Of a DNA stretch of 64,000 bases, positions 5,164-29,938 are shown piece by piece. Numbering within the stretch: position 1 is the first letter of the stretch; each line of letters starts with the position of its first letter. The stretch spans positions 12,980-76,979 of the forward strand of contig CBDBEO010000006.1 of NCBI GenBank assembly GCA_965204455.1, given 5' to 3'. The translations under genes were made by a program, and so were the position numbers. The notes beneath the pieces were generated by a model that was not told where the DNA came from, searched no databases, and saw only the letters and a list, made by a program, of their open reading frames with translations. The DNA is from an uncultured Candidatus Binatia bacterium. Its GTDB lineage: Bacteria > Desulfobacterota > Binatia > Bin18.

Positions 5164-5444
5164 GCCAGCCGTCGCTGTTTTGGCCCGGGCGTCTCGGGTG
5201 GCGCTCCGTTTTCCCGTGACCGGCCGCCCCTTTCCGATCCACCGATCGCGGAGTGAACCAGCGGCAGACGGAGTTGATTCAAGGATGCTCCCTGGCAAGC
5301 GAGGAAATCCATGATGGCTCGCCGGGCAATCTGGGCTACTGGCGCATCTTCATGATCGGCGATGGCCCGCAACGTCGAATAGGCCCGATCATCGAGATTG
5401 ACCGTTACCCGGGCAGTCTTAATCCGTCCTTTGGGCCTTGCCAT
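5160..5444 (-). CDS. Ribbon-helix-helix (CopG-like) regulator, first gene of the MORC-HK/Rec/Dcm operon
   Basis: RVTVNLDDRAYSTLRAIADHEDAPVAQIARRAIMDFL fits the RHH pattern; translationally coupled to the next gene. Confidence 0.75.
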   Translation of the reverse strand: MARPKGRIKTARVTVNLDDRAYSTLRAIADHEDAPVAQIARRAIMDFLACQGASLNQLRLPLVHSAIGGSERGGRSRENGAPPETPGPKQRRLA

Positions 5445-5744
5445 GAATGCAGTTTAATGCAGCAATAAACCCCTGTCAAATCGGACTTTCAGAAGCCTCG
5501 TCCCTCTGAAGTGTACAACACCCGGGCCTTTCACCAGCTGCATCGGCACGCTCCTTGGGCACATCCTGGGCCTGCTCCCTCCCCTCCCCGCTGGTCCTGT
5601 TATGACCAGGAACAATACGGCGTCAGATAAATGTTCGTCGCATAAGCGTTTATTCAGAATCGTGGTTGCTGTTCAAATTCCCCTGCCAGTCCTATAAAAG
5701 AGGCCAGCGCAAATCAGGCGAACGAAGGAGAGGATGAGGAGCCC

Positions 5745-6482
5745 ATGCTGACCTTTGAGCCCGGCCGCAAGTACACTCGACCTGCCGTCAAAGAACTGGC
5801 GGGTCTTCCACCGAATGCCAAAGGCGGAATCTGGGATACTGGGATTGTGGAGCATAGTGGCGAGTTCTTGATCTTCGCCAATGTAGGCATTGAAGGGCGA
5901 ACCGGACACGACTACAGCAACCGTTGGGAGGACAAACTCTTTCGGTGGTACCACAAGAACGGCTCCCATCTTGGCTGGGAAAGCTGCAAGAGATTGCTGG
6001 AAGAGGGGCGCATTGTTCACGTGTTCTGGCGCGGCTCCAACACATCCGCTTTCGAATATGCAGGTACCGCGAAAGCGGTCGAGGTTGTGGATTCCTCACC
6101 AGTGGAGATCCTCTGGGCGTTCGGTACCACCGATTTTCATCAAATCCCGGAGCAGGTTTTATCCATGGAGTATCGAGAAGGGGATGTCCGGCGAGTGCTG
6201 GTGAATGCATACGAACGAGATCGTGCCGCGCGCCGGGCGTGCATTGACCACTTCGGGGCGATCTGCGCTGTGTGTAATTTCCGATTCGAGGAGCGATACG
6301 GCCCACTCGGCTCAGGTTTTATGCACGTGCATCACCTTGTGCCCTTATCGGAGATCAAAGCTGACTCCAAGGTTGACCCGATACGCGATCTCCGCCCGGT
6401 TTGTCCCAACTGTCACGCGATGCTCCACCGACGACAGCCACCGTTTTCAATTGAAGAACTTCGCAAGATGCTCCGCGATTAG
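5745..6482 (+). CDS. McrA-like HNH endonuclease with an N-terminal putative modified-base reader domain
   Basis: YERDRAAR..CAVC..HVHH..DLRPVCPNCHAMLH is the McrA-type HNH signature; GAGGAG RBS. Confidence 0.85.
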   Translation: MLTFEPGRKYTRPAVKELAGLPPNAKGGIWDTGIVEHSGEFLIFANVGIEGRTGHDYSNRWEDKLFRWYHKNGSHLGWESCKRLLEEGRIVHVFWRGSNTSAFEYAGTAKAVEVVDSSPVEILWAFGTTDFHQIPEQVLSMEYREGDVRRVLVNAYERDRAARRACIDHFGAICAVCNFRFEERYGPLGSGFMHVHHLVPLSEIKADSKVDPIRDLRPVCPNCHAMLHRRQPPFSIEELRKMLRD

Positions 6483-6695
6483 GCGGCCTCGGAGCGTCGC
6501 TAGAGTATTTTCATTAATTTTAGCGTGAAGCGGCCGTGGAGCGCTCCGGAGGACTGGGAGGCCAAGCCGCCGCCGAGCTGAAGATTTTTAGGCGGAGCCC
6601 GCCGTGTATCCGCGATTCATTCAGTCGGGCGTGACACGTTCAGCGACGTAAGTCCTTAATTTCCCTCTACCGCGTCTCAGCCGCGCCGCCCGCAG

Positions 6696-6723
6696 TGTCC
6701 GAATAACGCCCAATGTGTCGAGT
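6696..6723 (+). other. Degenerate dif/Xer-like 28-bp site
   Basis: TGTCCGAATAA-CGCCCA-ATGTGTCGAGT (11-6-11 layout); similar to 8734-8761. Confidence 0.35.
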
Positions 6724-6786
6724 TTGAGAGCGTGGGGGTACTGTCCTAATTAGGGTAATAACATACTTGCCTAATCCACGCGTCGT

Positions 6787-6996
6787 GTGGTAGGTTCCCG
6801 CCCCATGAAGCGGCGTCCCCCTCCGGCCAGAGAGTACCTTGAAGGCCCCGAAGCGATCCAGCGCTTTGAGACCCTGGCGAAACGGATGCTGACCACCCCG
6901 CCCCTACGCCCGAAGGCGCGCCGGACGGGGCGGCCGAAGCGCAGCCATGCGGTGGTCCCTGCCCAGCAGACCGTGCACCGTTTGACGGGCGGCTAA
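6787..6996 (+). CDS. Small passenger ORF inside the IS1595
   Basis: Lies inside the left end, convergent with the transposase; EYLEGPEAIQRFETLAKRML; function unknown. Confidence 0.4.
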   Translation: MVGSRPMKRRPPPAREYLEGPEAIQRFETLAKRMLTTPPLRPKARRTGRPKRSHAVVPAQQTVHRLTGG

Positions 6997-7947
6997 GTCC
7001 GCGAGGTCTCCCTCGCCGATCAACTGCTGAGAGGGGAGCCGGTTGTCCGCCAGCGCGCGGGCCACCACCACAAAGCGATCCGCGTCCCGTCCGCCCCGCG
7101 CAGTGAAGCGAAAGACCTGCTCATCCAGATACCGGCGCAGAGGGAACGGCTCCACACTGACAGACGAGCCTTTGATGGTGCGTTTGAGCAAGGCCCAGCA
7201 GTTCTCCATACGGTTCGTGGTGACGTGATCCCGGACATACGCCTCGGCATGGTTGATGATCTGATGCACGTAGGCTTCGTCCAGCCCCCGGTAGCCGCTG
7301 TACTCATCGGTATGGAGTTCGCTGCCTGGGGTGACGTGCTGGCGCACTTCCTGGTGCAACGCTCCCCGCTGCGTGTTCGGGAACACCGTCGCATGAACCC
7401 GGCTCGTGCGAGGGCCGTGGGGGCGCTCTAACAGCCCCATGACGGCCGTCTTGCCCGCCCCACCCGTGCCCGTGATCTTCCGCGCCTTGACCGCCTGATG
7501 CATGAACCGGGCCTTGCCGCCGATAAACGTTTCATCGGCTTCGACCTCGCCGCCCAGGGGCTCAGGCGGGTCATGTTGCATGGCGTACCGAATCCGGTGC
7601 AGCATGAACCACGCCGTCTTCTGCGTCACGCCCAGCGCCCGGTGCAGCTCGTAGGACGAGATGCCGGTCTTGCCGTTGGCCAGCAGCCAGATCGCCGGCA
7701 CCCACTTGGCCAGCGGGAGCGGGCTGTCTTCCATGACCGTGCCGACCTTGATGCTGAACTGCCGCCGGGCGTGTTTGGTCTTACACTGCCAGCGCCGTTG
7801 CGTGGCCAGGTAATGCACCTGGTCACTTCCGCAGGTCGGACACCTCACCCCGCCCGGCCAGCGCATCGTCACCAAGGCGTCAATGCAACGCTGCTCGTCG
7901 CTGAAATAGCAGATGGCGTCTTGCAGAGTGCGTGGGGGCGGTGGCAT
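6904..7947 (-). CDS. IS1595-family transposase (Zn ribbon, HTH, DDE)
   Basis: CPTCGS..WQC zinc ribbon, QKTAWFMLHRIR, EADETFIGG, LHTDEY, TNRMEN, YLDEQVFRF. Confidence 0.92.
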   Translation of the reverse strand: MPPPPRTLQDAICYFSDEQRCIDALVTMRWPGGVRCPTCGSDQVHYLATQRRWQCKTKHARRQFSIKVGTVMEDSPLPLAKWVPAIWLLANGKTGISSYELHRALGVTQKTAWFMLHRIRYAMQHDPPEPLGGEVEADETFIGGKARFMHQAVKARKITGTGGAGKTAVMGLLERPHGPRTSRVHATVFPNTQRGALHQEVRQHVTPGSELHTDEYSGYRGLDEAYVHQIINHAEAYVRDHVTTNRMENCWALLKRTIKGSSVSVEPFPLRRYLDEQVFRFTARGGRDADRFVVVARALADNRLPSQQLIGEGDLADLAARQTVHGLLGRDHRMAALRPPRPARLRA

Positions 7948-12699: not shown

Positions 12700-13416
12700 C
12701 TAGCCGACCACCACGGACTGCTCCGCCGCACCCTCCAGGCTGCCCAGTTTCCAGACCCGCCGCGCCAGCTTGGAAGAGCCTCCCTCTTTGTGCGCCTCGG
12801 CACGCAACTCGTGCATCAGCGACTTCGCGTTCTCGAAGCATCTGATCGTCTCCGAGCCAAAGCCGAAGGTCGCTTTCGGACGCCGCCTCTGATCGTGGGC
12901 AAAGACCAGGCACCCCGTCACCCGCGTTCCAGGCGCCCAGGCCCGAACCCTCTCGACGTTGGTCGCAATACGCCGCAAGGTTTCCCGGAACTCCGACGTG
13001 GGAACGCGCCCGTGCTTCGTTTCGATCACCCATAGCCCGCGCGGCGTCGCCACCAGGTGGTCGATGTCCCCGACGCTGGCGATCTCCTCCACATGGTGCG
13101 CCACCGCGCACGCCTCCCGTGTCAGCGCGTACTCAATCGCTTGCCCGACCGTCTCCTCCGCCCGTGCGCCCTTCTTCATGTCCGTCACCCGCCAGCCACT
13201 CCGCGCCTTGTACAACGCGGCTCCGACGAAAGCCCCGCCGGGGAGCAACAGCACAAACCAGATGGTCCATCCGGCCCCAAAGCCTCCGACAAGCGTGGTC
13301 CAGAACGCCGCTGCGCCGCCGCACAGCCATCCCATACCCAGTGTCGCGTGGACCACGGTGTTAACCGCTCGGCCTAGAAGCCGGTCACGGAGCCATTCGC
13401 CCGGGTTTCGTCTCAT
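12700..13416 (-). CDS. NERD-domain nuclease-related protein with N-terminal TM helices
   Basis: KGARAEETV..GDIDHLVATPRGLWVIETKH; two hydrophobic segments. Confidence 0.85.
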   Translation of the reverse strand: MRRNPGEWLRDRLLGRAVNTVVHATLGMGWLCGGAAAFWTTLVGGFGAGWTIWFVLLLPGGAFVGAALYKARSGWRVTDMKKGARAEETVGQAIEYALTREACAVAHHVEEIASVGDIDHLVATPRGLWVIETKHGRVPTSEFRETLRRIATNVERVRAWAPGTRVTGCLVFAHDQRRRPKATFGFGSETIRCFENAKSLMHELRAEAHKEGGSSKLARRVWKLGSLEGAAEQSVVVG

Positions 13417-13599
13417 TTCGTCTCTCTCGATTCGTCCGCAACAACGTGCGGTCGTGGAGCGCAGTTTGTTGTTTTGGCGCACGACTCTACCGCAGCGCCA
13501 GCGGCAGGACAATCGGCCGCGGCGAGGCGAAGTCCAGGAGCCGCGCTAGCGGCTTAACACGGGAGCGGCGGGGACGTTGCGGGAACATGCCGCTCCTCC

Positions 13600-14202: not shown

Positions 14203-15423
14203 TCAGTGGCTTCTGGGTAGGCTATCTTCCCCGACATCACCGGGAGTGCTTGCAGAAACCGCCAACACTGCCCGCGCCGCGTCAATCCGGGCCTGGACAA
14301 GAATTGCTTGATGCTTGTCCGGTCCGACCTGGGCGAGCATCGGTCGCATTTTCTCCAATTCCTCCTCGGCCCGGCGGTCGATTTCCCGACGCTGGTCCTC
14401 GGGTGCGGCCATATACTGCCGTAAGACTTCGTCCTCCTCCTGCTGGATTGCCGGGATGGGCCGGTCGGCCTGGGAGGCGGCCGCCCGCCCTGGTTTTGCC
14501 CCCTGCCCTCTCGTCACTTGCGCCTCAATGTCGCGCGCCGTAACCAGCGGCGCGCCGTTTTTCTCGAACGCAGCCTTGAGCCAGGCATTCGCATTGCGGA
14601 TAACCGTCTTGCCTTCCTTGGCCTGCTCGACCGCCCGCAACAACGACAGACGAAAAGTCGTCTTGTCCATCTCTGGATAGGCGTCGGCAATAGCAATGAG
14701 CGTTGCTTCCCGAATCTTCCACTCTTTCGGACATATTCCTAATAGTTGCGATACGTCTGTAGTTTGTATGTATGTATTCTTCTTACATACATACATACGG
14801 GGGGGGTTGGTCCTAAGCGCTTGGGACCGACGGTTAGGGGTAAGTCCTAAGCGTTTGACAATGCCGCGCGCCTCATTCAGCGTCCCTTTTCGGACCGGAA
14901 TCGTTGTTTCAAGCTCAACCTGAAAGCCCTGAACATCGGCGGTTCTGACGGCCGTTGTTCGCAGAATACCGACCTGCTTGAGCATGCGAATTGCCTTTTT
15001 AACCCCTTCAATAGAGGCTCCGAGCTGTTTGGCGATATGTCGGACCGAGATAATTCCCTGGCTGGCGGCAACCCCCTCAAGGAGCTGTTGGACCTCCCAT
15101 TGCAGGGGAGCTAGTAAGATGGCTTTTCCTTGTTGAGAAGAGGCTCCGGACCGACCGTCAGTCCCAAGCTTGTTTTTGGTGTCGGAAGGACCGACCGTTG
15201 GTCCTAAGGACTTACCCCTAGCCCCTAGTCCTTGCTCCGGACCGACCGTTGGTCCTAAGGACCTACCCTCAGCACTCTGATCTGCGGAATCGTCGGGATC
15301 CTCTTCCTGGGTCGGAGGGACGCCGACAAGGGACAAAAGCCGCTCTCGCCGGCGGGGCGCCGGGCGGTCGAACTGGTCTTTCCAGCGGTCTTGATCGGAC
15401 CGTTTTTTACGCAGCGCTGTCAT
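14203..15423 (-). CDS. wHTH protein downstream of ParA with DNA repeats inside its gene (replication or partition protein)
   Basis: SVRHIAKQLGASIEGVKKAIRMLKQVG HTH; RNANAWLKAAF C-terminal motif; SLGPTVGP peptide repeats produced by DNA repeats. Confidence 0.65.
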   Translation of the reverse strand: MTALRKKRSDQDRWKDQFDRPAPRRRERLLSLVGVPPTQEEDPDDSADQSAEGRSLGPTVGPEQGLGARGKSLGPTVGPSDTKNKLGTDGRSGASSQQGKAILLAPLQWEVQQLLEGVAASQGIISVRHIAKQLGASIEGVKKAIRMLKQVGILRTTAVRTADVQGFQVELETTIPVRKGTLNEARGIVKRLGLTPNRRSQALRTNPPRMYVCKKNTYIQTTDVSQLLGICPKEWKIREATLIAIADAYPEMDKTTFRLSLLRAVEQAKEGKTVIRNANAWLKAAFEKNGAPLVTARDIEAQVTRGQGAKPGRAAASQADRPIPAIQQEEDEVLRQYMAAPEDQRREIDRRAEEELEKMRPMLAQVGPDKHQAILVQARIDAARAVLAVSASTPGDVGEDSLPRSH

Positions 15424-16249
15424 GAGCCTGCCCACCCTCAGTCTCAGCCGCAGACTCATGGACGAGGGGCTCCAGGCCCAGGCGGCTCAAGACTTCCCTC
15501 CCCAGCGCCATGAAATCCCGGGCTGGCGTGCTTTTTCTGTCATGTTGGAAGATTGACTTTCCCTCCGCGATCGTCTCTTCGAGCTTGACCGAGGGGCTGA
15601 TGGTCGCATGGAAGGCTTTCGGGCCGAATTTCTGTTGAACACTGCTGAACATCGCCCGATGAATCTTTTTGCGGCCGTCGTGCATATTGAGCAAGACCCC
15701 GAGAATGTCCAGGTCTTCGTTGTAGGCCTGGATCTCGCTGATCAGGTTTTCCACCAGGTCAAAGCCGTCAAAGCTGAATCGGGAGCCTGAGGCAAACGGG
15801 ATCAGACAATACCGTGAGGCAACCAGCGCATTCACCGTCAAATAGGACAGGGAAGGAGGGCAGTCGATCAGGATAATGTGATCGTCCTCCAGGGACATTT
15901 TCCTGAGGCATTGCCGCAGGGTCAGCTCCGCGAATGCTTTGCTGCCCATCTCCCGCTCAAGAGCGGTCAGGCGGATGTCCCCGTAGATCAGTGAAACGCC
16001 GGGCTCGGACGTGGGATACCACGGCGTATAGAGCCCGTCCTCTATATCGCCGCGTAAGATCGTGTTGGCGGTCCAGCGCACCTCGCTGGGATGTTGGAGC
16101 CCGAGGCACAAAGACAGGTTCGCCTGGGGGTCCATGTCAATGGTGAGCACGGGATAGCCCATCCGGGCCAGCGCCGCCGAAAGCTGAAAGACGGTGGTCG
16201 TCTTCCCAACCCCGCCTTTCTGGTTGAGGGTGCTGATGATATGCGCCAT
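15407..16249 (-). CDS. parA: ParA/Soj partition ATPase
   Basis: NQKGGVGKTT, DMDPQAN, IDCPPSL; GGAGG RBS. Confidence 0.95.
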   Translation of the reverse strand: MAHIISTLNQKGGVGKTTTVFQLSAALARMGYPVLTIDMDPQANLSLCLGLQHPSEVRWTANTILRGDIEDGLYTPWYPTSEPGVSLIYGDIRLTALEREMGSKAFAELTLRQCLRKMSLEDDHIILIDCPPSLSYLTVNALVASRYCLIPFASGSRFSFDGFDLVENLISEIQAYNEDLDILGVLLNMHDGRKKIHRAMFSSVQQKFGPKAFHATISPSVKLEETIAEGKSIFQHDRKSTPARDFMALGREVLSRLGLEPLVHESAAETEGGQAHDSAA

Positions 16250-16439
16250 GCCTCCTCCCATCTTCCGTGACCTTCCTGCGAAAAGGCAGTATAGCGGAAT
16301 CCTGTCGAAACTACAACGTCGCTTTGTCGGGGATGTCAGAGACGAACACCGTAGATGGAAACAGTCGTCTACGGCTCGGTCCGGCCGCGCTGATTCCTCC
16401 AGCTCTCCCTGATCGTTCTCCTGGTTCCCGGTTAAGAAA

Positions 16440-18217: not shown

Positions 18218-18368
18218 TCAAGGCGCGGGATATTCACCCCCCCCCACCAGCGCCAGACCGGCCGCCGGTGGGGGGCTAAACCTTATTTCACCACGAAATC
18301 CTCCGCCCACAGCGGCGTGTCCGTCTCCACCGTCAAGCCGTCCGTCAGGGTGTAGACCATATAGCCAT
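18218..18368. repeat. Direct repeat (about 150 bp) of 21008-21150
   Basis: TCAAGGCGCG.GATATTCACCCCCCC and CACCACGAAATCCTCCGCC.ACAGCGGCGTGTCCGTCTCCACCGTCAAGCCG occur in both copies. Confidence 0.9.
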
Positions 18369-20985
18369 CGTCCTGTTCCACCCCGCTGGCGACAATGTCG
18401 GCCAGCGCCGGCCAATCCGCCCCCCTCAGCACAATCAGGTCGTCGCCGTCCCCAAAGTCGGTGATGATCTTCTCGCCCGTCTCCCCGGCGACAAACACGA
18501 AACGGTCAGCCCCCGGCCCGCCGGTGTAGGTGTCGTCCCCATCACCGCCCAGGAGTCTGTCGGCCCCCCGGCCACCGTCCAACTCGTCATCGCCCTGGCC
18601 GCCAAAAAGCGTGTCGGCGCCGCGCCCGCCGCGCAGGTCATCGTCGCCCTTGCCGCCGCGCAACTCATCCTTGCCGGCCAGGCCGCGCAGCACGTCGTTA
18701 CCCTTCTTGCCGATGAGTAGGTCGTTGCCGTCGCCGCCTTCGAGTGTATCAGGGCCGGTGGTGCCGGTCAGTTCCAGGGCCTGGGCTTTCCCCTTCTGCT
18801 CTTCCGGCGCGCCGCCCGCGTCGCCGTTGTTGGCATCGCCGCCGGACCCGGTCTGCGGGGTGTCGTCGTCCGTCACGGCTACGGCCACGGAGCCGACCGT
18901 GAGGCCGTCGTACTTGGCATCATCGCTGGCGGCCCAGTGGGTGACGCGGACGGACTCGTCCTCGGCGTCGTCGTCAGACACGCCGGACACGGTGAAGCTC
19001 CGGGCCGTGTACCAGTTGGCCGGCGTGAAGGTATGCGACGCCGGGCTGACCGTCGCCGCGCCGTCGTCGTCGCTGGCCGGGATGATGGTCACGTTGTGGG
19101 TGGGCTGGCTGTCCAGCACTACGGTGTAGGTGTTGCTGCCGCCCTCGGCCACCGCCAGGGGGTTGGCAGCCGTCACCGTCACCCCGGCGCTGTCGTTGTC
19201 GGTGATGGTGACGGTAGCGGGGCCACCAACCACTTGGTAGCCGGTGTCAGGGGCGACGGTGAGGGTCACGGTGAAGTCCTCGTCGCCCTCGGCCACGGCG
19301 TCATCGTGGATCAGGAAGACGCCCTCCACCGACGTCTCGCCGGCCGGGATACTGTAGGGGTCGTCGGAGAGCGTAATGTAATCGTCGCCCTCATCGGCAA
19401 AGAGATATCCGCCGGTGGCCGTGCCGTCCGTAGCCGCCAGGCGGAAGGCGACCACCGCCGTTGTGGGGCCGGTGCGCCGCACTTCAATGAGTACGTGGTC
19501 GGTGTCCTCGGTGGCGGTGAGGGACGTTTGGGCGAAGCTCAGCGACCCGACGTTGGCTGTGTCTTTGCCATTGTCATCGCCGTCGCGTTGGTTGGCCGTG
19601 CGCAGGCTACCGTATTGTAGCACCGGGTATTGGTCGCTGGTGCCAAAGTCCCAAGGGTCGTCCGGGCTGCCGTCGCCGTCCACGTCCACGTTCCAGTCGG
19701 CGTAGATGCCGGTATAGCCGGTGGGCTGCTTCAGGTCGCTGCTTGTCTTGCCGGTGCCGTGAGGGCTGCTGGCCTGACCCGAGGTCTGCGTGTCCCAATA
19801 GCTATCGTCATCGCTGGAAGGACAACTGTAGACACAGTTTGACACCAGCCCGCCGATCTTGAAGTCTCCACTTTCTCTCAGGTACTCGTAATACCCCTCG
19901 TAGGGTTCATCCTTCATGGACACGTTGCCCAAGGAGTAGCTGGTAGTGATAAAGCCGGCTGCATTCCCCGCCAGTCCGCCAACTCCGTTGGTCCCGGTCA
20001 CATCCCCCGTGGCGTAACTGGCGACAATCTGGCCTGTAGTCCCACCGGCATATAGCAGGGTAGCGCTTCCTGGTGCTTGGTTGCCCACCAACCCGCCGAC
20101 ATAACCCTTGCCGGACACATCCCCCGTGGCATAGCTGGCGAAGATGCCGCCAAAATTCCACCCTACCAATCCCCCGGTATGCCCTCCACCGGTCACACTG
20201 GCAGTAGAGTAACTGGCAATGATCGTACCAGTGTTCTCCCCGGCCAGCCCGCCGGTGTCATTTGATCCGGACACCGTTCCGGTCACATAGCTGTCGCTGA
20301 TTGTGCCGTCGTTTGTTCCTACCAGACCCCCAAGGCCCGTCACGCCACGGCCGCTGGGTGACACGTCGACAGATTCCAACCCAAGGTGGCGGATGACGGC
20401 GTCCGTGCCCGCATAACTGAACAACCCGACAAACCCATGACTTATAGTGTCAAATGCAATGATGCTGTGCAGGTTGATGTGCAGGTTGCTGATGGTGTGG
20501 CCGTTGCCGTCGAAAACAGCCTCGAACGGTGGGACGGGTACGGGGCGGCGGATCCCGGCTCCGAACCCGATGGGGGTCCAGCCCAGGCCCGCGTTCCAGT
20601 ACGTATCGCCGGCGTCGGCGTCGCCGCTGCCGTTGGTGTCGAAGTTCAGGTCAGCGGTCAGCTCGTAGCCGTCACATCCCGTGCTGGGGCAGCCCATCCC
20701 GGTCAGCGCGGCGGGAAAGGCGGCGTCATAGTCGTCGGAATGACTCCCGTCGTCAACCAACCCGTCGCCGTCAAGGTCCCACCGGATGGCGTTCAACTGG
20801 GCGAGGCTGGACACCTCGATCAGACCGTCGTCATCGGTGTCATAGTCCTGGTCGTCAACGATACCAACTGGCTGGGCCTGAGCGGGCGCCAGCGGTCCCG
20901 CGATGACAGACAGAGCGAGAAGGACGGTGGCAAAGCGAATGATGACTGGAATGCGACTTAGAATGGCCTGTGGCGGGTAGAGCAT
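18283..20985 (-). CDS. Secreted adhesin-like protein: GLUG repeats, Calx-beta, RTX Ca-binding repeats
   Basis: Signal peptide, DYDTDDDGLIEV, repeated GGLVG, Calx-beta-like EGDEDFTVTL, GGxGxDxL nonapeptides; AGGAGG RBS. Confidence 0.88.
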   Translation of the reverse strand: MLYPPQAILSRIPVIIRFATVLLALSVIAGPLAPAQAQPVGIVDDQDYDTDDDGLIEVSSLAQLNAIRWDLDGDGLVDDGSHSDDYDAAFPAALTGMGCPSTGCDGYELTADLNFDTNGSGDADAGDTYWNAGLGWTPIGFGAGIRRPVPVPPFEAVFDGNGHTISNLHINLHSIIAFDTISHGFVGLFSYAGTDAVIRHLGLESVDVSPSGRGVTGLGGLVGTNDGTISDSYVTGTVSGSNDTGGLAGENTGTIIASYSTASVTGGGHTGGLVGWNFGGIFASYATGDVSGKGYVGGLVGNQAPGSATLLYAGGTTGQIVASYATGDVTGTNGVGGLAGNAAGFITTSYSLGNVSMKDEPYEGYYEYLRESGDFKIGGLVSNCVYSCPSSDDDSYWDTQTSGQASSPHGTGKTSSDLKQPTGYTGIYADWNVDVDGDGSPDDPWDFGTSDQYPVLQYGSLRTANQRDGDDNGKDTANVGSLSFAQTSLTATEDTDHVLIEVRRTGPTTAVVAFRLAATDGTATGGYLFADEGDDYITLSDDPYSIPAGETSVEGVFLIHDDAVAEGDEDFTVTLTVAPDTGYQVVGGPATVTITDNDSAGVTVTAANPLAVAEGGSNTYTVVLDSQPTHNVTIIPASDDDGAATVSPASHTFTPANWYTARSFTVSGVSDDDAEDESVRVTHWAASDDAKYDGLTVGSVAVAVTDDDTPQTGSGGDANNGDAGGAPEEQKGKAQALELTGTTGPDTLEGGDGNDLLIGKKGNDVLRGLAGKDELRGGKGDDDLRGGRGADTLFGGQGDDELDGGRGADRLLGGDGDDTYTGGPGADRFVFVAGETGEKIITDFGDGDDLIVLRGADWPALADIVASGVEQDDGYMVYTLTDGLTVETDTPLWAEDFVVK

Positions 20986-21063
20986 TTTTGAACCTCCTAC
21001 AGTGTTGTCAAGGCGCGAGATATTCACCCCCCCACCGGCACCGGTGGAGCACGGACTAAATCT

Positions 21064-21297: not shown

Positions 21298-21333
21298 TGA
21301 TGCCATGTATAAATGCAGTTATACACACTTTAT
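21298..21333. other. lox-like recombination site 1 (left arm degenerate)
   Basis: TGATGCCATGTATA-AATGCAGT-TATACACACTTTAT. Confidence 0.7.
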
Positions 21334-21344
21334 GTGCCTGAAAA

Positions 21345-22435
21345 TGAACGTGGCGAGGGGACAGAAAGCGCAGGGGACAGCGACGGGCGAATCCGGCCGG
21401 CACGCCGATTTCCGGCTCCGCGCGCCCCGTCCGGTTCCCGGAACCTCGGCTCCTGGCCAGCTCGTCATCACCCCCGTCGGGTCCGCACCACCAACAGCCG
21501 GTCTGACCCCATCCGGCCTCAGCCACCTCAATGCGGTGCTCGACCACGAAATTACCCGAAACACGCAGACGAACTACCGGGTGCAGTGGCAGCACTTCCG
21601 CGACTGGGCGCTGGGAAAGGGCCTCCGGGCGTTGCCGGCCCCACCGGCCCAGGTGGCCGTATACCTGGCCGAGCGGCTGGAGGCGGCTGGCCATAAGCCC
21701 GCCACCTTGCGGGTGGCCGCCGCGGCCATCGCGTTCGTCCACAAGACCGCGGGGGTGGCGGACCCCTGTGCCAGCCCGGCCGTGCAGCGGACGCTGCGGA
21801 GCGCGACCCGCAAGGCGGGGCAGGCCCAGAAGCAGGCCGAGGCGCTGACCACCGAGGCCCTGGCCGCGATCCAGTCTACGGCTTGTACCCCACGGCGCGG
21901 GCGGGGTGGCAGAGACGAGAGTCAGGAAACCGCTAACTATAGGGGAAATCTGGATATGGCGGTCATCCGCCTCATGCGGGACGCTATGCTGCGGGTGTCC
22001 GAGGCGGCTGGCCTGACCTGGCAGGACCTCAGGACCGAGGCCGACGGGACGGGCCGCCTGCTCATCCGCCGTTCTAAAACGGACACTGAGGGGACGGGGA
22101 CGGTAATGTTCGTGTCCGCCGAGACCATGGCGACGCTCCGGGTGATACGCAATGGAGCGAGCGAGACCGACCGGATATTCGGCCTCCGCCCGAACCAACT
22201 CTCGCGGCGCATCAAGCAGGCCGCGCAGGCGGCCGGGCTCGGGGACGGTTTCAGCGGGCATTCGCCCCGGGTGGGGATGGCGCGGGACCTGGCGCGGGCG
22301 GGCATCGAGCTGCCCCGCCTGATGAACGCCGGGCGCTGGCGCTCGCCCGTCATGCCGGCGCACTATACGCGGAATGAAACCGCCGGGAAGGGAGCGGTGG
22401 CGCAGTTCTACGGCTACGGCCGCTGCGGGGGCTGA
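21345..22435 (+). CDS. Cre-like tyrosine recombinase (start approximate)
   Basis: Core-binding domain plus MLRVSE (R), RRSKTD (K), GHSPRVG (HxxR), GRW, HY (Y). Confidence 0.9.
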
Positions 22436-22556
22436 CCGGGCCGGGATGAGGGGAAACCGGCCCGGTGACAGTGATTGACCGCCGCCAGGGGAATTTGGTA
22501 CGTTATTCACCTATCCGGCGGTGATTCACCACCGCACCCAGGAACCGAGGGAGGAC

Positions 22557-22592
22557 TTAAAGCGTGTATAACTGCATTTATACACGCTTTAA
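22557..22592. other. lox-like recombination site 2 (perfect arms)
   Basis: TTAAAGCGTGTATA-ACTGCATT-TATACACGCTTTAA: 14-bp inverted arms and an 8-bp asymmetric spacer. Confidence 0.8.
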
Positions 22593-23716
22593 CTTTGCGG
22601 GCTGAGCCTGATGGCAAACCTGAAGCGTCCTCTTCCCTTGGCTCCTTCCGGCAGCTGGTGACAGACCCCACTTACCCATCTCTCTTCTCCTGATTGACTG
22701 TTACTTTCTGCCTCTTAATCATACCATAGCTTCATAATCTGAAGGCCGAGGTGGAGGGGACAGAGGCGGCCACCAGTTTGTTGCGGGCGGCGTCTTGCGC
22801 GTCGAGCGTGGCGACCCTGCTCGTGAGCTGCCATCACAGGGCAACCCGCCCGCTCAGGTCTACCGGGAACGGGGCCATTGCCGGCGGGAATCCAGCCTGT
22901 CCTGCCTGGGTGTTGACAGCAGCGTGAGTCATGATGCGTCTTGCGACGGGTGAAGGGCAGGGCGGAGATTATGACCGACTCGGGGCTGCTCGCCCCCCTG
23001 GTCGTGGACCGGAAAGCCCCGCTCTCCGGACTGCCGATCAGCGTAGAGGCCGTCTTCCTGCATTGCGATAGGGCGCTGATCCGCTCCCGGATTTGGGAGC
23101 CTGCGGGCCAGATTGAGCATTCCGGCTACCCTACGTATGGCCAAGTCCTCGCTGACCAGATCCCGGGAGCTGATGCCCGAGAGATCGACCAATCCGGGGA
23201 CGAAGCCAACCGGCAACGCCTCTCCTGAGGCGAGCGAGCCCTCCTATATCCCGGCTCCTACAGATGCCTATCCCACGTTGAACGGCGGGCACGGACAACC
23301 TATACGTGAAGCTCTCCGCCGTTGAGGAGCTGTTTCCGCGGCTTCCTGGACGTGCAGGTTAGTAGGCCGTGTAGGGAAACACGAGAGGCCTGAGCGGAGA
23401 GAGTCAATCAGTTTTCCCTTAATTCAGACCACCCACACCACCGCCTAACCAGCCAAGGACCCCCAAACCGCCCACACCACCACCGGTCCCAGCGCCGGCG
23501 TTGTCCCCGTGTATGCCGACATTCAGGGCGGGATAGGCGTTGCTGTTAATAGGAATCTCGGGAGTTTCAGAAGGAATCTCCGGCAGCTCGGCCGAGCCAT
23601 TCCCTGTAGAAAGAGCGCCAGGCCCGGAACACGGACAAGAATCTGGTTCGACATAATCCCCTCTTTCACTGTTTTCCGTCTCATATAAAAGTACAGGCGA
23701 GTTACCATATAAATCC

Positions 23717-24113: not shown

Positions 24114-24851
24114 ATGATTGTTTCTGCTTTCATCGCTCTGGTCCTCGTTCTGCAAGCGCTGTCGGCTCGGTCAGCCCTAGCCGTCTCACTGGCCGAGTGT
24201 GAAGCCTGGTTGTGTCTGCCAGCCGGTTTCTCCGTCTCGGAATGTTCCCCAGCCAGAAGCGCAGTCCTCCGGCGGCTGCGGCTCAACATGGACCCGCTGC
24301 CGCCGTGGTCGAGCTGCGCGGCGCAGTTCGGCTGGGACGCCGCCAACCTGGCCTGGACCTTTCCCACCCAGGAAAGCTGTCCGCATGGGGGCAGCTTGAA
24401 CGGCGGGGTCTGTACCGGCACGGACGGGGATGGCTGCACCTACACCTACACCCCTCGCAATCATGGCCACGTGTGGGTCTGGGTAGACGGCGCCCAAACC
24501 GGCGAATCGCTGCCCCACACCCTGGCCGCCGCCGGGTCTCCCACTATAGACACCGATTCGTGTTCGCCCCCTGACACCACCAACGTTTGTCTTAGCTGCG
24601 CCGACGATCCCGGCGACCCCCACACCTGCCTGGAGGGGTGGTTCTGGAGCGAGGGCCTGGGCAAGTGCGTTAATCCTTTGGTGGTCGGTCCACCTGTCCC
24701 CGGATGTAACACCATCAGCTGTCCCCATGTGCAGCACACCTGGGGAGCGAACCCGCTGGAAATCGACTGGACACTCCGGGCGGCGGTGCCCCCAACTAAT
24801 CGGTACGCCCCCCGGCCTATCTCTCAGACACACCGCAAGGGAGGTCTCTGA
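24114..24851 (+). CDS. Secreted Cys-rich protein with a TrbM/KikA-like N-terminus
   Basis: Signal peptide; CEAWLCLPAGF..SECSPA..LPPWSSC; Cys-rich extension; stop overlaps the virB2 start. Confidence 0.6.
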   Translation: MIVSAFIALVLVLQALSARSALAVSLAECEAWLCLPAGFSVSECSPARSAVLRRLRLNMDPLPPWSSCAAQFGWDAANLAWTFPTQESCPHGGSLNGGVCTGTDGDGCTYTYTPRNHGHVWVWVDGAQTGESLPHTLAAAGSPTIDTDSCSPPDTTNVCLSCADDPGDPHTCLEGWFWSEGLGKCVNPLVVGPPVPGCNTISCPHVQHTWGANPLEIDWTLRAAVPPTNRYAPRPISQTHRKGGL

Positions 24852-25153
24852 TGCACCCACACAGCCGATTCTTCCCAGCGGCCCTCATCCTAACCGCATT
24901 CCTCATGCTGCTCGCCCCAGACCTGGCCTGGGCGCAAGCCCTCGACCCGGTCCAAGGCGTGGCGGATATGTTCGTGGACTTTCTGACCGGCGCCTTTGCC
25001 CGCTCGATGGCGATTATTGGCCTGGCCGTCTGCGGCTTCATGGCGATGATGGGCCGGCTGCCCTGGAGTGCGGCGCTGGCCGTCATCGGCGGCATCATCC
25101 TGGTCTTTGGTGCCGCCGCGCTCGTCGATGAGATCTCGGGCTTCGCGGGGTAG
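24851..25153 (+). CDS. virB2: T4SS pilin VirB2/TrbC
   Basis: Signal peptide, two TM helices, GIILVFGAAALV; sits before virB3. Confidence 0.9.
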   Translation: MHPHSRFFPAALILTAFLMLLAPDLAWAQALDPVQGVADMFVDFLTGAFARSMAIIGLAVCGFMAMMGRLPWSAALAVIGGIILVFGAAALVDEISGFAG

Positions 25154-25159
25154 GGCGGC

Positions 25160-25441
25160 ATGGCGCAACGACACGACACGCTGTTCCTGGCGCTCACCCG
25201 CCCGGCGATGGTCTGGGGCGTCACCTACTCCTTCGTCGTCCTGAACCTCGTCGCCACCGGGATGGTGTTTGTCTGGACCGGTAGCTTCTGGACCATCCTG
25301 CTCGGCGGCCCGGTGCATCTGGTGGGCTATCTCGCCTGCCTGCGGGAGCCGCGCCGCTTCGATCTGTGGTGGGTCAAGCTCCGCCATGCCCTGCCCGCGC
25401 CCACCCGCTTTTACTGGGGCGCGAACTCATACCGGCCCTAG
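25160..25441 (+). CDS. virB3: T4SS VirB3
   Basis: LFLALTRPAMVWGV ... FYWGANSYRP. Confidence 0.93.
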   Translation: MAQRHDTLFLALTRPAMVWGVTYSFVVLNLVATGMVFVWTGSFWTILLGGPVHLVGYLACLREPRRFDLWWVKLRHALPAPTRFYWGANSYRP

Positions 25442-25452
25442 GAGGTTCGCCT

Positions 25453-27858
25453 ATGTCTGCACATGCCCTGGCCCTCTCCCTCACCACCCACGGCAAAGTA
25501 TCCGCCCAAGAGAAAGCGCTGGCGGAGTTTCTGCCGTACACCCGCCATGTCGATCAGGCCACCCTGGCCACCAAAAACGGCGAACTCCTCCAGATCATCA
25601 AGCTGGACGGCTATCCCTTTGAAACCGCGGACGACCTGACCTTGGACGGCCTCAAGGAAGTCCGCAACACCCTGACCATTGCCCTCGCCTCCGCCCGGCA
25701 CATCCTCTACCATCATGTGATCCGGCGCGAAGTCGCGGCGGACATCGGCGGCGATTTTTCAGGTTTCGCCGCCGAAGTAGACCGGGCCTGGAACCGGCGC
25801 CTCACCCGCCGGCGGCTGTACGTCAACGACCTGTATCTGACCCTCCTCCGCCGTCCCGCGCCGGGCCTCGTCGGCCTGGTCGATAAGCTGCTGGGGCTGT
25901 TTACGGCCCGCGATCTGACCCGCCAGGAGCAGGACCGGGCCGACAGCCTGCGGGAGTTGCACGACGCAGCCGATACCATCGTCTCGACCCTGGCCTCGTA
26001 CCGCCCGCGTCTGCTGACCACCTATGAGCAAGATGGCCGGCTGTATTCCGCGCCGTTGGCGTTCCTCAGCTACCTGCTCAACCACGAAACCCGGCCGGTG
26101 CTGCTGCCGGCCGGGCCGATAGACGCCTACCTGCCCACCAAGCGGCCGCTGTTTGCACGGGAGTCGTTCGAGCTGCGCGGCGCCGCGCCGGCGGATCAGA
26201 CGTATGGAGCGGTCTTGTCGGTCAAGGAGTATGCCGCCCACACCTGGGCCGGCCTGCTCGACGACTTGACCCGATTGCCGTTTGAAATGGTGATTACGCA
26301 GAGCTTTGCCTATACCGAACGGCAAAACGCCCTCGACACGCTCGCCCGGCAGGGCCGGGTGTTGGACGCGGCGGCCGATGCGGCCGCCTCCCAGCGCCAA
26401 GACCTGATTGATGCAGCCGACGACCTGGCCTCCAACCGGATCGTCTTCGGCGGCCATCACCTGACCGTCACGCTCACCGCCCCGGATGCACAGCGCCTCG
26501 AACGTGCCTTGACCGAAACCACAGCCACCCTGACCAACCTCGGGGTCATCGCGGTCCGCGAAGACGTGAACCTGGAGCCGGCCTTTTGGGCGCAGTTCCC
26601 CGGCAACCACGCCTTCATTGCCCGCCAGAGCGAGATCTCGTCCTTGAATTGGGCGGGCTATGCCAGCCTGCATAACTTCCCCGCCGGCAAACGCACGGGC
26701 AACCATTGGGGCGACTGCATTGCCCTCCTGGAAACCACGTCCGCCACGCCCTACGCCTTCAACTTTCACAGCCGGGACGTGGGCAACTTCGTGGTGATCG
26801 GGCCGACCGGGACCGGTAAGACGGTGGTCCTGACCTTCCTCCTGGCCCAGGCCCAGCGCCACCAGCCGGTGTCCTACTTCTTCGACCGGGACCGGGGCGC
26901 GGAAATCTGCATCCGCGCACTCGGCGGCTGGTACGGGGTGCTGCGGCCCGGCGAACCCTCGGGGCTCAATCCCCTCCAGCTGCCCGACACGCCGGCGAAC
27001 CGGGCCTTTCTGCGGGACTGGCTCGGAACACTGCTCAGGCCGCTGGACGGCGCGCCCTTATCGGCGATGGATCAGGGCGTCATTGCCGATGCGGTCGCCG
27101 CCAATTATGACGTTCCTCTCGAACAACGTCGTCTGGTCCATGTGCAAGCGCTGTTCCGGGGCCATGAAGCGGATACGGGAGACAACAGCCTGGCGGCCCG
27201 GATCCGGCCGTGGTTTGGGGACGGGGAAAAAGCCTGGCTGTTCGACAACCCGACCGACGCACTGCCCCAGGCCCGCACCCAAGGCTTCGACCTGACCTAT
27301 GTGTTGGACGATCTGACCGTCGGCGTGCCGCTCCTGTTCTATCTCTTTCACTGCATCGAACAGGCGCTCGACGGCCAGAAAGCCCTGATCTTTTTGGACG
27401 AGGGCTGGCGGGCGCTGGATGATCCGGCGTTTGAGGAGCGGCTGCGGGAGTGGCTGAAAACCATCCGCAAGAAAAACGGCCTGGTCGGCTTCGGCACACA
27501 GAGCGCCACGGACGTGCTCCGGACGCGGATTGGGCCGACCATCATCGAACAGTGTCGGACCAAACTCTTCATGCCCAATTTCCAGGCCGACGCGGACAGC
27601 TATTGCCAGGGCTTCGGCCTGACCGAGCACGAACTCCGGCTGCTGCGGGAGGTCGGCGATACGTCGCGCTGCTTCCTGGTCAAGCACGACGCGACAAGCG
27701 TGGTGGCCCGGCTCGATCTCGCCGGGGCGGACGACATTCTGGCCGTGCTCTCGGGCCGAGAAGACACCATCCAGCTCTTAGACACCATCCGCGCCGAGGT
27801 CGGAGACGATCCGGGCGTCTGGCTCCCCGTTTTCCATGCGGAAAGGAGGAAGACGTGA
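25453..27858 (+). CDS. virB4: T4SS ATPase VirB4
   Basis: GPTGTGKT, FDRDRG, FLDEGW, IRKKNG; GGAGG RBS. Confidence 0.97.
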   Translation: MSAHALALSLTTHGKVSAQEKALAEFLPYTRHVDQATLATKNGELLQIIKLDGYPFETADDLTLDGLKEVRNTLTIALASARHILYHHVIRREVAADIGGDFSGFAAEVDRAWNRRLTRRRLYVNDLYLTLLRRPAPGLVGLVDKLLGLFTARDLTRQEQDRADSLRELHDAADTIVSTLASYRPRLLTTYEQDGRLYSAPLAFLSYLLNHETRPVLLPAGPIDAYLPTKRPLFARESFELRGAAPADQTYGAVLSVKEYAAHTWAGLLDDLTRLPFEMVITQSFAYTERQNALDTLARQGRVLDAAADAAASQRQDLIDAADDLASNRIVFGGHHLTVTLTAPDAQRLERALTETTATLTNLGVIAVREDVNLEPAFWAQFPGNHAFIARQSEISSLNWAGYASLHNFPAGKRTGNHWGDCIALLETTSATPYAFNFHSRDVGNFVVIGPTGTGKTVVLTFLLAQAQRHQPVSYFFDRDRGAEICIRALGGWYGVLRPGEPSGLNPLQLPDTPANRAFLRDWLGTLLRPLDGAPLSAMDQGVIADAVAANYDVPLEQRRLVHVQALFRGHEADTGDNSLAARIRPWFGDGEKAWLFDNPTDALPQARTQGFDLTYVLDDLTVGVPLLFYLFHCIEQALDGQKALIFLDEGWRALDDPAFEERLREWLKTIRKKNGLVGFGTQSATDVLRTRIGPTIIEQCRTKLFMPNFQADADSYCQGFGLTEHELRLLREVGDTSRCFLVKHDATSVVARLDLAGADDILAVLSGREDTIQLLDTIRAEVGDDPGVWLPVFHAERRKT

Positions 27859-28607
27859 TGACCGCCTCCACGGGTCTCTCGCATGTCCCAGCCCTGGTGC
27901 TGACGGGCGTGCTCCTGACGGCTGCGCCCCCTCCTGCGGCCGCCCAGGGCATTCCCGTTCACGACTCCACCAATCTCGCCCAGATTGCCGCCACCGTGGC
28001 GGCCCTGCTGGATATCTACGGCCGGCAAAACGAGGAGCTGATCGAAGCGCGCCGCATTATGCAGTCTGTGACGCAGCAATCCGGCCTGGGGCGTATCCAT
28101 GAAACCCCCGAGTTGATCCAGCTGCGCCGGCGCTTACCGGTGCTGCTGTTCGACCTCAACCGCCTGTCCGAACTGGCCGCCAACCCGGACCTGGCCCAAA
28201 CCCTGACCCTGTACGGCCGCCTGACCGACCGCTACGGCCTGCTCGAAGACGCGGCCTATGAACCACAAGCCCCGGACGACCCGTATGCGCGGGCCTGGGC
28301 GGCGGATCGGGACGCCCAGCTGGCGGCCGCCACCAGCGCCGAAGTGGTCTACGGCAACGTCAATGAGCGGGAAGACTTGTACGCCAACCTGATGACCGAG
28401 CTGGACACGCGCGACAACCTCAAGGAGTCGGTCGATATTCTGGCGCGGCTGACGGCCGAAAACGGCCGGCTGCTCATGGAGCTGATTCGGCTCCAGTCGG
28501 CGGCCACGCACGCCGGCGCCGCAGCTCAGCTCGCTCAACAAACCCACGACGCCCGCGTGCGGAGGATGGCAGACTATGAAGACTTGGCGATGGAAGACTG
28601 GCGCTAA
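27858..28607 (+). CDS. virB5: T4SS minor pilin VirB5
   Basis: Signal peptide then AQGIPVHD; helical body; lies between virB4 and virB6. Confidence 0.85.
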   Translation: MTASTGLSHVPALVLTGVLLTAAPPPAAAQGIPVHDSTNLAQIAATVAALLDIYGRQNEELIEARRIMQSVTQQSGLGRIHETPELIQLRRRLPVLLFDLNRLSELAANPDLAQTLTLYGRLTDRYGLLEDAAYEPQAPDDPYARAWAADRDAQLAAATSAEVVYGNVNEREDLYANLMTELDTRDNLKESVDILARLTAENGRLLMELIRLQSAATHAGAAAQLAQQTHDARVRRMADYEDLAMEDWR

Positions 28608-28812
28608 GGTGGCCGTGGCCGTGGCGCTCCTTGGGACGGCCGGCTGTGCCCATCGGGAGTTGACGGCGCCCTGCTCGGACTATAAGGCGGCCCGCTTTGC
28701 CCCGACGGCCGCCCAGCCGGGCGCCATCCCGTGTGACCGGCCGCTGCCGATGGCGCGGCCGCCCTGGACAGCAGCTCTGGATCAGCCTTTGGCTGGTCCA
28801 GTGGGAGGGTAA
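28576..28812 (+). CDS. Small lipoprotein (VirB7-like or entry-exclusion-like)
   Basis: Lipobox-like LLGTAGC; lies between virB5 and virB6. Confidence 0.6.
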   Translation: MKTWRWKTGAKVAVAVALLGTAGCAHRELTAPCSDYKAARFAPTAAQPGAIPCDRPLPMARPPWTAALDQPLAGPVGG

Positions 28813-28942
28813 GAGCATGGCCCTCCTACCTCGGGGCGCGGGTGGGTGTCTGATCCACCACCCGCCCGCGTCTTTTTCCTGCTTTCCACCCTGGACCGCA
28901 GCCCTGGACCACCCGACAGGTGAGTCAGTGGGAGGGTAGCGC

Positions 28943-29938
28943 ATGCCGGCGGTCCGCAGCATTATTGACCAGACCGAGGCCGCCACCCAGACGTATGTCC
29001 TGAACGTCTGGACCGCGTTCGACACCGCCGCCGAACCGCTCATCCTGACGGGGGCGACGGCAGCGCTGGCCGTCACCGGCTACGTGCTGCTGACCGGCCA
29101 ACTCGGGATGCGGGTGAGCGAGCTGCTGCCCCGGCTGGTACGCTGGGCGATTATCCTGACGCTGCTGCTCAACATGCCGCAACTCTTCGGCCTCGCCTTT
29201 CCGCTGGTCACGGACGTGCCGGAGGGCATTGCCCAATTCCTACTGACGCTCGCCCCGCGCGCGCCGACCGAAGCCGAGGTCATCGGCATGATCGAAGCGG
29301 TCATGCAGGCCGGGATCAACGCCGCCTCGCGGGTGTGGCAGGACGCCGGCTATTTCAGCCCGACGCCCTACATCATTGCCAGCCTGCTGCTGCTCACCGC
29401 CCTGCTCCTGGCCATCGTCGCCACGGTGCTGCTCGTACTGAGCAATCTGGCAGTCGGCATCCTCCTGGCCGTGGGGCCGTTCTTCCTGATCCTGCGCCTG
29501 CTCGATGTCGGCAAGGGCTTGTTTGAGGGCTGGCTCCGCCAACTCCTCACCTTCGCGCTGGTACCGATCTTCGTCTACAGCCTGATCGCCCTCAATTTCA
29601 CCATTCTGGAGGAGTCCCACCTCCAGCTCACGGCGGCCACCCAACCCGGCGCGATTGTCACGCTGACCACGGTGATTCCGTTTGTCCTGGTCGGGATCGC
29701 CAACCTGGTGCTGCTCACCCAAGTCATGTCCTGGGCCGGCGGCGTGGGCGGCGGGATCGCGCTGGCGGTCGGCGCCGGCACCGTCATCCACGGCGTCCAG
29801 CAGGCCGCCCAGGTCACGGTCGCCACGGGCCGGGCCGTGGGCCGGGCCACGGCGGCTGGCGTCGGGGCCGCGAGCGGCGCGGCCGTCAAGTACGGGCCGG
29901 GGATCGCGCGGCGGATCGGGATGGGGGGGCCATGGTGA
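28943..29938 (+). CDS. virB6: T4SS VirB6
   Basis: Polytopic membrane protein; LLAVGPFF..KGLFEGWLRQL. Confidence 0.9.
   Translation: MPAVRSIIDQTEAATQTYVLNVWTAFDTAAEPLILTGATAALAVTGYVLLTGQLGMRVSELLPRLVRWAIILTLLLNMPQLFGLAFPLVTDVPEGIAQFLLTLAPRAPTEAEVIGMIEAVMQAGINAASRVWQDAGYFSPTPYIIASLLLLTALLLAIVATVLLVLSNLAVGILLAVGPFFLILRLLDVGKGLFEGWLRQLLTFALVPIFVYSLIALNFTILEESHLQLTAATQPGAIVTLTTVIPFVLVGIANLVLLTQVMSWAGGVGGGIALAVGAGTVIHGVQQAAQVTVATGRAVGRATAAGVGAASGAAVKYGPGIARRIGMGGPW

Follow-up and report, generated by a model that had tools for sequence, protein, structure and literature searches.

A recombinase gene between two inverted lox-like sites

The window analysed here is a stretch of 64,000 nucleotides of DNA from an uncultured Candidatus Binatia bacterium, corresponding to bases 12980-76979 of a contig of 80,634 bp. 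At positions 21298-22592 it contains a gene for a Cre-like recombinase bracketed by two lox-like sites in inverted orientation; this unit will be referred to as the cassette. Its parts are the following:

21298..21333, no strand: site 1 (lox-like), with spacer AATGCAGT, a good inner arm and a degenerate outer arm
21332..22435, plus strand: Cre-type tyrosine recombinase gene, 367 amino acids from ATG 21332 or 363 amino acids from ATG 21344
22436..22556, no strand: non-coding stretch of 121 bp within the cassette, from the stop codon to site 2
22557..22592, no strand: site 2 (lox-like), a perfect 14-8-14 palindrome
21312..22578, no strand: predicted invertible segment of 1,267 bp, spacer to spacer, deduced from the mechanism of Cre and from breakpoints lying at the sites in relatives

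Site 2 is composed of the inner arm TTAAAGCGTGTATA (22557-22570), the spacer ACTGCATT (22571-22578) and the outer arm TATACACGCTTTAA (22579-22592), the two arms being symmetric at 14/14 positions. In site 1 the gene-proximal inner arm TATACACACTTTAT (21320-21333) agrees with the site-2 arm at 12/14 positions and the outer arm TGATGCCATGTATA (21298-21311) at 9/14 (both hand counts). The spacer that separates them, AATGCAGT (21312-21319), is the exact reverse complement of ACTGCATT: the two spacers show 0 mismatches when the sites are read as inverted and 2 when they are read as direct. A preliminary description of this DNA had given the same layout, i.e. the geometry of site 2, one good and one degenerate arm in site 1 and reverse-complementary spacers, and it is confirmed here with the same coordinates.

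The pattern GTGTATA-N8-TATACAC, with at most 2 mismatches, is matched in the window by sites 1 and 2 only (0.00 matches expected from 100 shuffles). The same holds for the whole genome (5,197,363 bases, 6 contigs), in which the backwards pattern, used as a control, gave 1 match per strand. No inverted repeat beyond 30 nucleotides is present at the window sites. Both sites are within 150 bp of the recombinase gene: site 1 overlaps its first possible start codon (ATG 21332, within the inner arm) and site 2 begins 121 bp past its stop codon. The sequence of the non-coding stretch 22436-22556 is not conserved between the window and relatives that are 72-75% identical. The two sites have the inverted arms of 13-15 bp, the asymmetric 8-bp spacer and the position near the gene that characterize Cre-type targets.

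Sequence features of the recombinase

ATG 21332 is the start retained in the database gene call (P0002), and an N-terminus of the form MY[LV][KH] is common to relatives. The protein matches Pfam PF00589 (Phage_integrase; E-value 2.4e-15) and its best solved relative by sequence is Cre (PDB, E-value 1.5e-14). The PDB matches are exclusively Cre and Cre-derived chains, 17 distinct sequences in all, and they cover residues 88-249 and 302-354. In the alignment of that search R217, K245, H306, R309, W332 and Y341 (363-amino-acid numbering) face R173, K201, H289, R292, W315 and Y324 of Cre, the catalytic residues as numbered in section 14 of PMC10250229. An alignment of 31 relatives shows no substitution at any of the six positions.

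The length of the N-terminal part (residues 1-54) varies among relatives, and this part is modelled poorly. With the AlphaFold model, which is weak, Foldseek returned Cre or Cre-derived structures at ranks 1-30 (best E-value 7.7e-10, template-modelling score 0.28-0.32, about 318 columns), followed by XerA, XerD and lambda integrase. The protein thus has the size (363-367 amino acids, for an expected 300-400) and, as indicated by the PDB search and by Foldseek on the weak model, the two-domain Cre-like fold, devoid of an arm-binding domain. NCBIfam gave only sub-threshold Xer matches and PADLOC no match for the window recombinase. By every feature that can be tested on the sequence, the enzyme is intact and of the Cre type.

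The bracket is conserved in relatives

Among 8,000 candidates scored, 991 relatives of the recombinase were found at an E-value <= 0.001, the best 120 being 66-100% identical to it. The loci compared were 7 from Dehalococcoidia and 4 from Acidimicrobiia metagenome-assembled genomes (MAGs) and 41 from metagenome contigs, to which whole-genome searches were added. The bracket is present in 20 of the 23 complete loci, window included, whose recombinase is at least 54% identical. In these 20 loci it has one form: a lox-like site just upstream of the start codon and a second one, inverted, after the stop codon. The 23 exclude L040 and L041 (same sequence as L039), L045 (which has site 1 but a right flank of just 140 nucleotides) and three truncated loci, L049, L050 and L013. 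The distance from the stop codon to the spacer is 90-220 nucleotides in 14 of the 16 loci measured (135 in the window, 217 in L043, 220 in L039) and reaches 582 nucleotides in L046, whose frame ends early. The similarity between loci at the DNA level is limited to the gene and the sites.

More distant relatives are devoid of the bracket. None was found around the relatives carried by Roseomonas, Acuticoccus and Methylobacterium plasmids (cultured alphaproteobacteria, 30-36% identity), and the same scans detected none around the paralogs, at most 52% identical, of the metagenome loci. Viral contigs contain just 2 distant relatives (37% and 29%), so the cassette is not phage-borne. The recombinase is single-copy in the genome of the window; elsewhere there are 1-3 copies per genome.

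The spacers of the two sites co-vary

In 18 of the 20 bracketed loci the spacer of site 1 is the reverse complement of that of site 2, and this correspondence is kept across 11 spacer types: AATGCAGT is found in 7 loci, ATTGCCGT in 4, and nine others, in 1 locus each; AATGGAGT is another of the natural types. The loci being related, their counts are not fully independent; the 11 types are. When site 1 was paired with site 2 of a different locus, the spacers matched exactly in 48 of 380 combinations, and none of 200,000 shuffles reached 18 matches (maximum 11). The agreement between the two sites of a locus is higher for the spacer (156/160 positions) than for the inner arm (209/280) or the outer arm (173/280), while across loci spacer positions 2 and 4-7 are variable. 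For six spacer types, 4-6 of the 8 positions change on reverse complementation, so that the inverted reading is unambiguous. Such co-variation is what a requirement for strand exchange between the two sites would produce; neither an operator nor a relic would call for matching spacers.

Both orientations are found among related loci

Comparison of Acidimicrobiia loci revealed the cassette in both orientations relative to its flanks. If L007 is written A-[cassette]-B, the cassette of L044 is co-linear with it (84%) and the flanks are swapped and reversed: the left flank of L007 (3698-3823) matches the reverse complement of the right flank of L044, and its right flank (5077-7466) the reverse complement of the left flank of L044. 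L006 and L008 likewise have a co-linear cassette with both flanks swapped and reversed. For L043 and L045 one flank could be tested, and it is reversed (93.7% over 2,619 nucleotides). The three pairs correspond to three unrelated right-hand contexts, with a flank identity of 77-92% within a pair and about 50% between pairs. Within the Acidimicrobiia pairs the recombinase cores are 88-93% identical, i.e. they have diverged about as much as the flanks. An exchange of the cassette was considered for L043 and L045 (cassette 84% vs flank 94%) and rejected, the recombinase cores being 91% identical, like the flank; the low cassette identity came from the variable 5' part.

In the Dehalococcoidia the neighbouring paralog gene is upstream and co-directional in L085, downstream and convergent in L086 and L011. 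The orientation breakpoints in relatives fall in the sites. The longest exact match between upstream and downstream flanks in the Acidimicrobiia loci is a 12-nucleotide word in L008; such repeats are too short for assembler error to be a likely source of the two orientations.

Beside one outer arm, about 115-170 bp are conserved throughout the Acidimicrobiia loci, irrespective of what lies across the cassette. On that side the conserved unit thus exceeds the invertible part. The block is placed as follows:

L006, L007 and L043: left of site 1
L008 and L044: right of site 2

The cassette in sequencing runs

Sequencing runs were examined as assembled Logan contigs (X17, X18, X1 and X2), and such contigs drop rare variants. 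Two runs of the window's organism contain the stretch; sponge, coral and marine metagenomes share small word fractions with it, some of them as relatives. One X17 contig spans site 1 in the assembled orientation with 0 differences. In the coral run X2 a contig of 1,278 nucleotides covers exactly 21306-22584 and ends within both sites, with 74 differences. Its depth is 53.8, vs 4-9 for the contigs matching the flanks. This contrast, together with the site-to-site extent, points to the cassette being a discrete unit that is also present in other contexts.

Genomic setting of the cassette

The other annotated features of the window are:

12700-13512, minus strand: NERD-domain protein
15407-16261, minus strand: ParA
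18283-21027, minus strand: RTX/Calx-beta protein of 914 amino acids (RTX nonapeptide repeats, Calx-beta domain and GLUG motif), directed away from site 1
22941-23228, plus strand: PPOX-type FMN flavoprotein fragment, C-terminal half (residues 104-196 of the 197-residue model TIGR04025)
24851-29938, plus strand: VirB2, VirB3, VirB4 and VirB6/TrbL homologs (type IV secretion/conjugation set)

The VirB4 of the contig is closest to that of conjugative alphaproteobacterial plasmids (44-50%). From its sequence the contig looks plasmid-like and resembles a conjugative plasmid. The flavoprotein open reading frame (ORF) 22941-23228 is a truncated gene. The gene fragment 22947-23233 is the only part of the 3.3-kb query whose DNA is conserved in the genus or family: it is 77-86% identical in 4 genomes, with shorter or weaker matches in 2 more genomes of the same genus or family.

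Paralogs, repeats and tandem genes at related loci

In four Dehalococcoidia loci a paralog of the recombinase adjoins the cassette, with 44% identity over residues 72-323. Its copies lie at:

L004, 2263-3333, plus strand, and 5359-6315, minus strand: recombinase paralog
L011, 5357-6163, minus strand: recombinase paralog
L085, about 15-830: recombinase paralog
L086, about 2941-3756: recombinase paralog

The paralog has E in place of H306, lacks a Lys at the position of K245 and stops short of W332 and Y341; Pfam gives no match for it. Judged by these residues the paralog is catalytically dead, and it may be an accessory or regulatory partner of the recombinase.

Three loci have long inverted repeats (0.45-1.4 kb, 70-93% complementary) in their flanking sequence, with the lox-like sites at the inner ends: 2213-3646 vs 5043-6462 in L004, 890-1338 vs 2725-3172 in L087, and 768-1100 vs 2898-3248 in L089. 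The repeats of L087 and L089, two loci of one genome, are mutually unrelated. A possible origin is recombination of site 1 with site 2 between sister copies, of which the repeats would be the scars. L009 contains tandem recombinase genes of the family, at 1199-2574 and 3398-4918: matched sites bracket the first, and the second (68% identical to that of the window) is without a detected bracket.

Comparison with known recombination systems

The window recombinase has the same six catalytic residues as Cre, to which it is 27% identical, and its sites have the arm/8-bp asymmetric spacer/arm organization of loxP. The loxP annotated in record X03453 likewise has an arm-8-arm layout, with the same GTATA/TATAC bases beside the spacer, which bears out the loxP-like geometry initially proposed. 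The two systems differ in other respects: the window arms are 14 bp long and match those of loxP at 7/13 positions (hand count), the spacer is different, and where the window has two inverted sites bracketing the gene, P1 has a single loxP located some 400 bp upstream of cre (X03453). Among plasmid records (PLSDB) there are 1,125 matches to the recombinase, all below 60% identity, the best listed being 36.5%.

Inverted segments that contain or adjoin their recombinase gene are known from other systems. In the Hin/hix H segment of Salmonella a serine recombinase is encoded inside the inverted segment of about 1 kb, requires an enhancer and Fis, and the segment contains an outward promoter for fljBA. 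The cassette shares with it a recombinase gene within its own inverted segment, two short inverted sites and a length of about 1 kb, but the window enzyme is a tyrosine recombinase and the scans reveal no outward promoter. In the Rci/sfx shufflon of IncI plasmids, rci is located beside invertible segments and the coding ends of pilV are rearranged. Common to both are a tyrosine recombinase on a conjugative plasmid (in the window, on a contig resembling one), a conserved spacer, one conserved and one variable arm and, as predicted for the cassette, inversion as the sole outcome, whereas the window cassette moves no coding sequence besides that of its recombinase.

The FLP/FRT system of the yeast 2-micron plasmid also has a tyrosine recombinase gene flanked by inverted targets, FRT being located inside repeats. 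The inverted targets on both sides of the gene are the common feature, as is, in L004, L087 and L089, the position of the sites at the inner ends of long repeats. In contrast, the window has no inverted repeat longer than 30 nucleotides and the host is bacterial; a copy-number amplification role of the 2-micron type appears unlikely for sites 1.26 kb apart. RIT elements consist of three tandem recombinase genes, and Acinetobacter pdif modules encode no recombinase of their own. Like the cassette, they have inverted recombinase sites or repeats at their boundaries and a sporadic distribution, but the window has a single recombinase gene, which sets it apart from RIT elements, and the cassette encodes its own recombinase, unlike pdif modules.

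The pneumococcal creX/psrA locus is an arrangement of the inverton type found in Type I restriction-modification (R-M) systems. Type I R-M epigenetic invertons with an invertase gene in the locus are reported in PMC7672463. The likeness lies in a tyrosine invertase within a locus bounded by inverted repeats, and in the Acidimicrobiia cassette abutting a Type IIG R-M gene. The difference is that the repeats of these invertons are inside hsdS, where target-recognition domains are swapped, whereas here the sites are compact and lox-like and the recombinase gene is flipped alone.

Other Cre-type pairs are Dre/rox, Vika/vox, Nigri/nox, Panto/pox and the YR1-12 of PMC10250229. Section 15 of that study reports a motif G(T)-A-T(G)-A beside the spacer of active Cre-type sites, with which the T-A-T-A next to the spacer of the window sites agrees. 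The candidate sites of the same study are single palindromes no more than 1 kb from the gene, and bracketing pairs are not mentioned in the sections consulted. By sequence comparison (at most 36.5% identity to plasmid records, 27% to Cre, arms 7/13 like those of loxP, a different spacer), the window recombinase and its sites are a new pair, in keeping with the initial proposal; overlap with the roughly 500 pairs predicted in Table S2 of PMC10250229 is possible. Full-text literature searches returned no description of a Cre-type gene placed between inverted lox-like sites.

Weighing the explanations

We consider it likely that the stretch 21298-22592 is a self-contained invertible cassette, in which a Cre-type recombinase gene lies between two cognate inverted lox-like sites. 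The preliminary description had suggested that the recombinase could flip its own gene. At the family level this is supported by the bracket, by the exact spacer matches and by the two orientations of orthologous loci; at the window locus inversion is predicted and probable.

Some observations weigh against this interpretation. The bracket is not detectable in 3 of the 23 complete loci (L009a, L010 and the frameshifted L090), and the spacers are mismatched in two of those that have it (1 mismatch in L004, 3 in L089). The AlphaFold model has a mean predicted local distance difference test score of 60.6, with residues 1-54 and 307-363 below 50. The two orientations were seen in different strains, through MAG and metagenome assemblies, and not within a single population. 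No strand-changing joint is among those listed for X17, X18, X1 and X2; because their contigs drop rare variants, inversion in the window's organism is neither supported nor excluded. As to the two orientations that the preliminary description had recommended looking for, a contig of X17 shows the assembled one at site 1, no inverted joint is listed for the four runs, and relatives show both. The degenerate outer arm of site 1 (9/14) might slow or prevent recombination in the window. It need not block inversion, since the Acidimicrobiia loci found in two orientations have arms that are equally or more degenerate. Finally, a consensus scan placed one promoter-like site to the left of the cassette, at 21011-20984 (minus strand), and one to the right, at 22694-22722 (plus strand). 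With such a site on each side, the window gives no evident sign that a flip would have a regulatory output. The first of them lies within the RTX ORF, the true start of which is then probably further downstream. Site 1 and the cassette's 3' stretch gave no match in the same scan, and promoter candidates read by hand were discarded as too weak.

The preliminary description had also mentioned the resolution of plasmid multimers, as by Cre/loxP in P1. Site 2 would then be the working site, recombined between its two copies in a dimer, and site 1 an operator or pseudo-site for autoregulation, with no inversion. Resolution through site 2 may well take place on a plasmid-like contig with ParA, VirB2, VirB3, VirB4 and VirB6 homologs and a VirB4 of the conjugative alphaproteobacterial plasmid kind, and the idea agrees with a perfect site 2, a site 1 whose degenerate arm accompanies an overlap with the start codon, and contigs that show no inversion. 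As the explanation of the two sites we nevertheless find it improbable. An operator needs arms and not a spacer, so that exact spacer matching in 18 of 20 loci and 11 types is left unexplained, as are the two orientations of related loci. The relatives are not confined to plasmids with one site per replicon: they have two sites per locus, and some are on contigs of 1.66 Mb and 2.06 Mb, where multimer resolution cannot explain the bracket. A chance resemblance, or a site 1 that is a decayed, functionless relic of a duplication, would fit the 9/14 outer arm of this site; with 0.00 matches expected by chance and a bracket recurring in 20 loci with co-varying spacers, this hardly deserves credence.

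The sites could instead be terminal inverted repeats that bound a small mobile element with the recombinase as its sole gene. Inversion would then be a side reaction and the principal activity would be movement between replicons, e.g. by exchange or capture at lox-like sites. The distribution of the cassette speaks for mobility. It is sporadic over at least 2 phyla (Dehalococcoidia and Acidimicrobiia MAGs), to which the window contig with its alphaproteobacterial-plasmid-like VirB4 is added, and, of 301 genomes sampled in the class to which L003's genome belongs, 5 carry it (E-value <= 1e-80). In 40 relatives of the window's genome (7 of the same genus) the longest DNA match to the cassette is at most 27 nucleotides. 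Flanks are unrelated between loci and rich in transposases and defence-type genes, the same Acidimicrobiia cassette stands beside three unrelated right-hand contexts, and the coral contig extends exactly from site to site with a depth well above that of the flanks. However, with inverted sites the segment cannot be excised by conservative recombination, and we know of no mechanism for the movement of such a cassette. The several copies, target-site duplications and empty sites of a transposable element are not found either: copy number is just 1-3 per genome, the genome has two sites only and hence no solo site, no target duplication was seen, and no empty site was found, without a systematic search for one; none is readable among the 40 relatives, which share only the gene fragment 22947-23233 with the query. 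We therefore regard this explanation as unlikely.

Proposed mechanism and possible role

If the cassette is invertible, recombinase monomers would, by analogy with Cre, bind the arms of both sites, and the two sites would synapse with their asymmetric spacers aligned. Strand exchange within the matching 8-bp spacers would flip the segment 21312-22578 (about 1.27 kb) that carries the gene; the inner arms would travel with it and the outer arms remain with the flanks. Enzyme bound at site 1 probably represses its own expression, in line with the autoregulation proposed in the preliminary description; the position of this site suggests it, since the overlap with the start codon allows for no 5' leader.

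In the Acidimicrobiia the neighbour of the cassette is a restriction gene. A Type IIG R-M gene starts 39 nucleotides from the site-2 spacer in L007 and L006 (PADLOC PDLC03628, E-values 2e-88 and 1.6e-75), a distance too short to accommodate a separate promoter, which fits a switch. The genes concerned in L007 are:

L007, 5088-6350 and 6375-8357, plus strand: Type IIG restriction-methylase, two ORFs (PADLOC)
L007, 8362-8919, plus strand: PLD-family nuclease gene, after the Type IIG gene

In L044 the Type IIG flank of L007 is located at the opposite end of the flipped cassette. An alignment of the 3' stretches of five Acidimicrobiia loci, made in search of an outward promoter, showed a conserved block and no convincing -35/-10 elements. 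Tentatively, and as a possibility that we would not call probable, the cassette may be the first known representative of a class of minimal, portable flip switches that spread horizontally. Each would consist of a Cre-type recombinase with its own pair of inverted lox-like sites, would toggle between two states wherever it inserts and would place its neighbours under phase variation, in at least two and perhaps three phyla.

A tyrosine recombinase within its own inverted segment, forming a compact unit present in at least two and perhaps three phyla, is an arrangement that we did not find in print, and a new Cre-type recombinase is here nominated together with its 36-bp target. The 11 locus-matched spacer variants amount to a natural spacer-swap experiment and suggest a set of mutually orthogonal site pairs for genome engineering. 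The cassette raises two testable questions, namely how such a unit spreads and whether it is a portable phase-variation switch. If it is, candidate targets would be the Type IIG restriction enzyme in the Acidimicrobiia and perhaps, in the window, the RTX-like surface protein or the conjugation genes.

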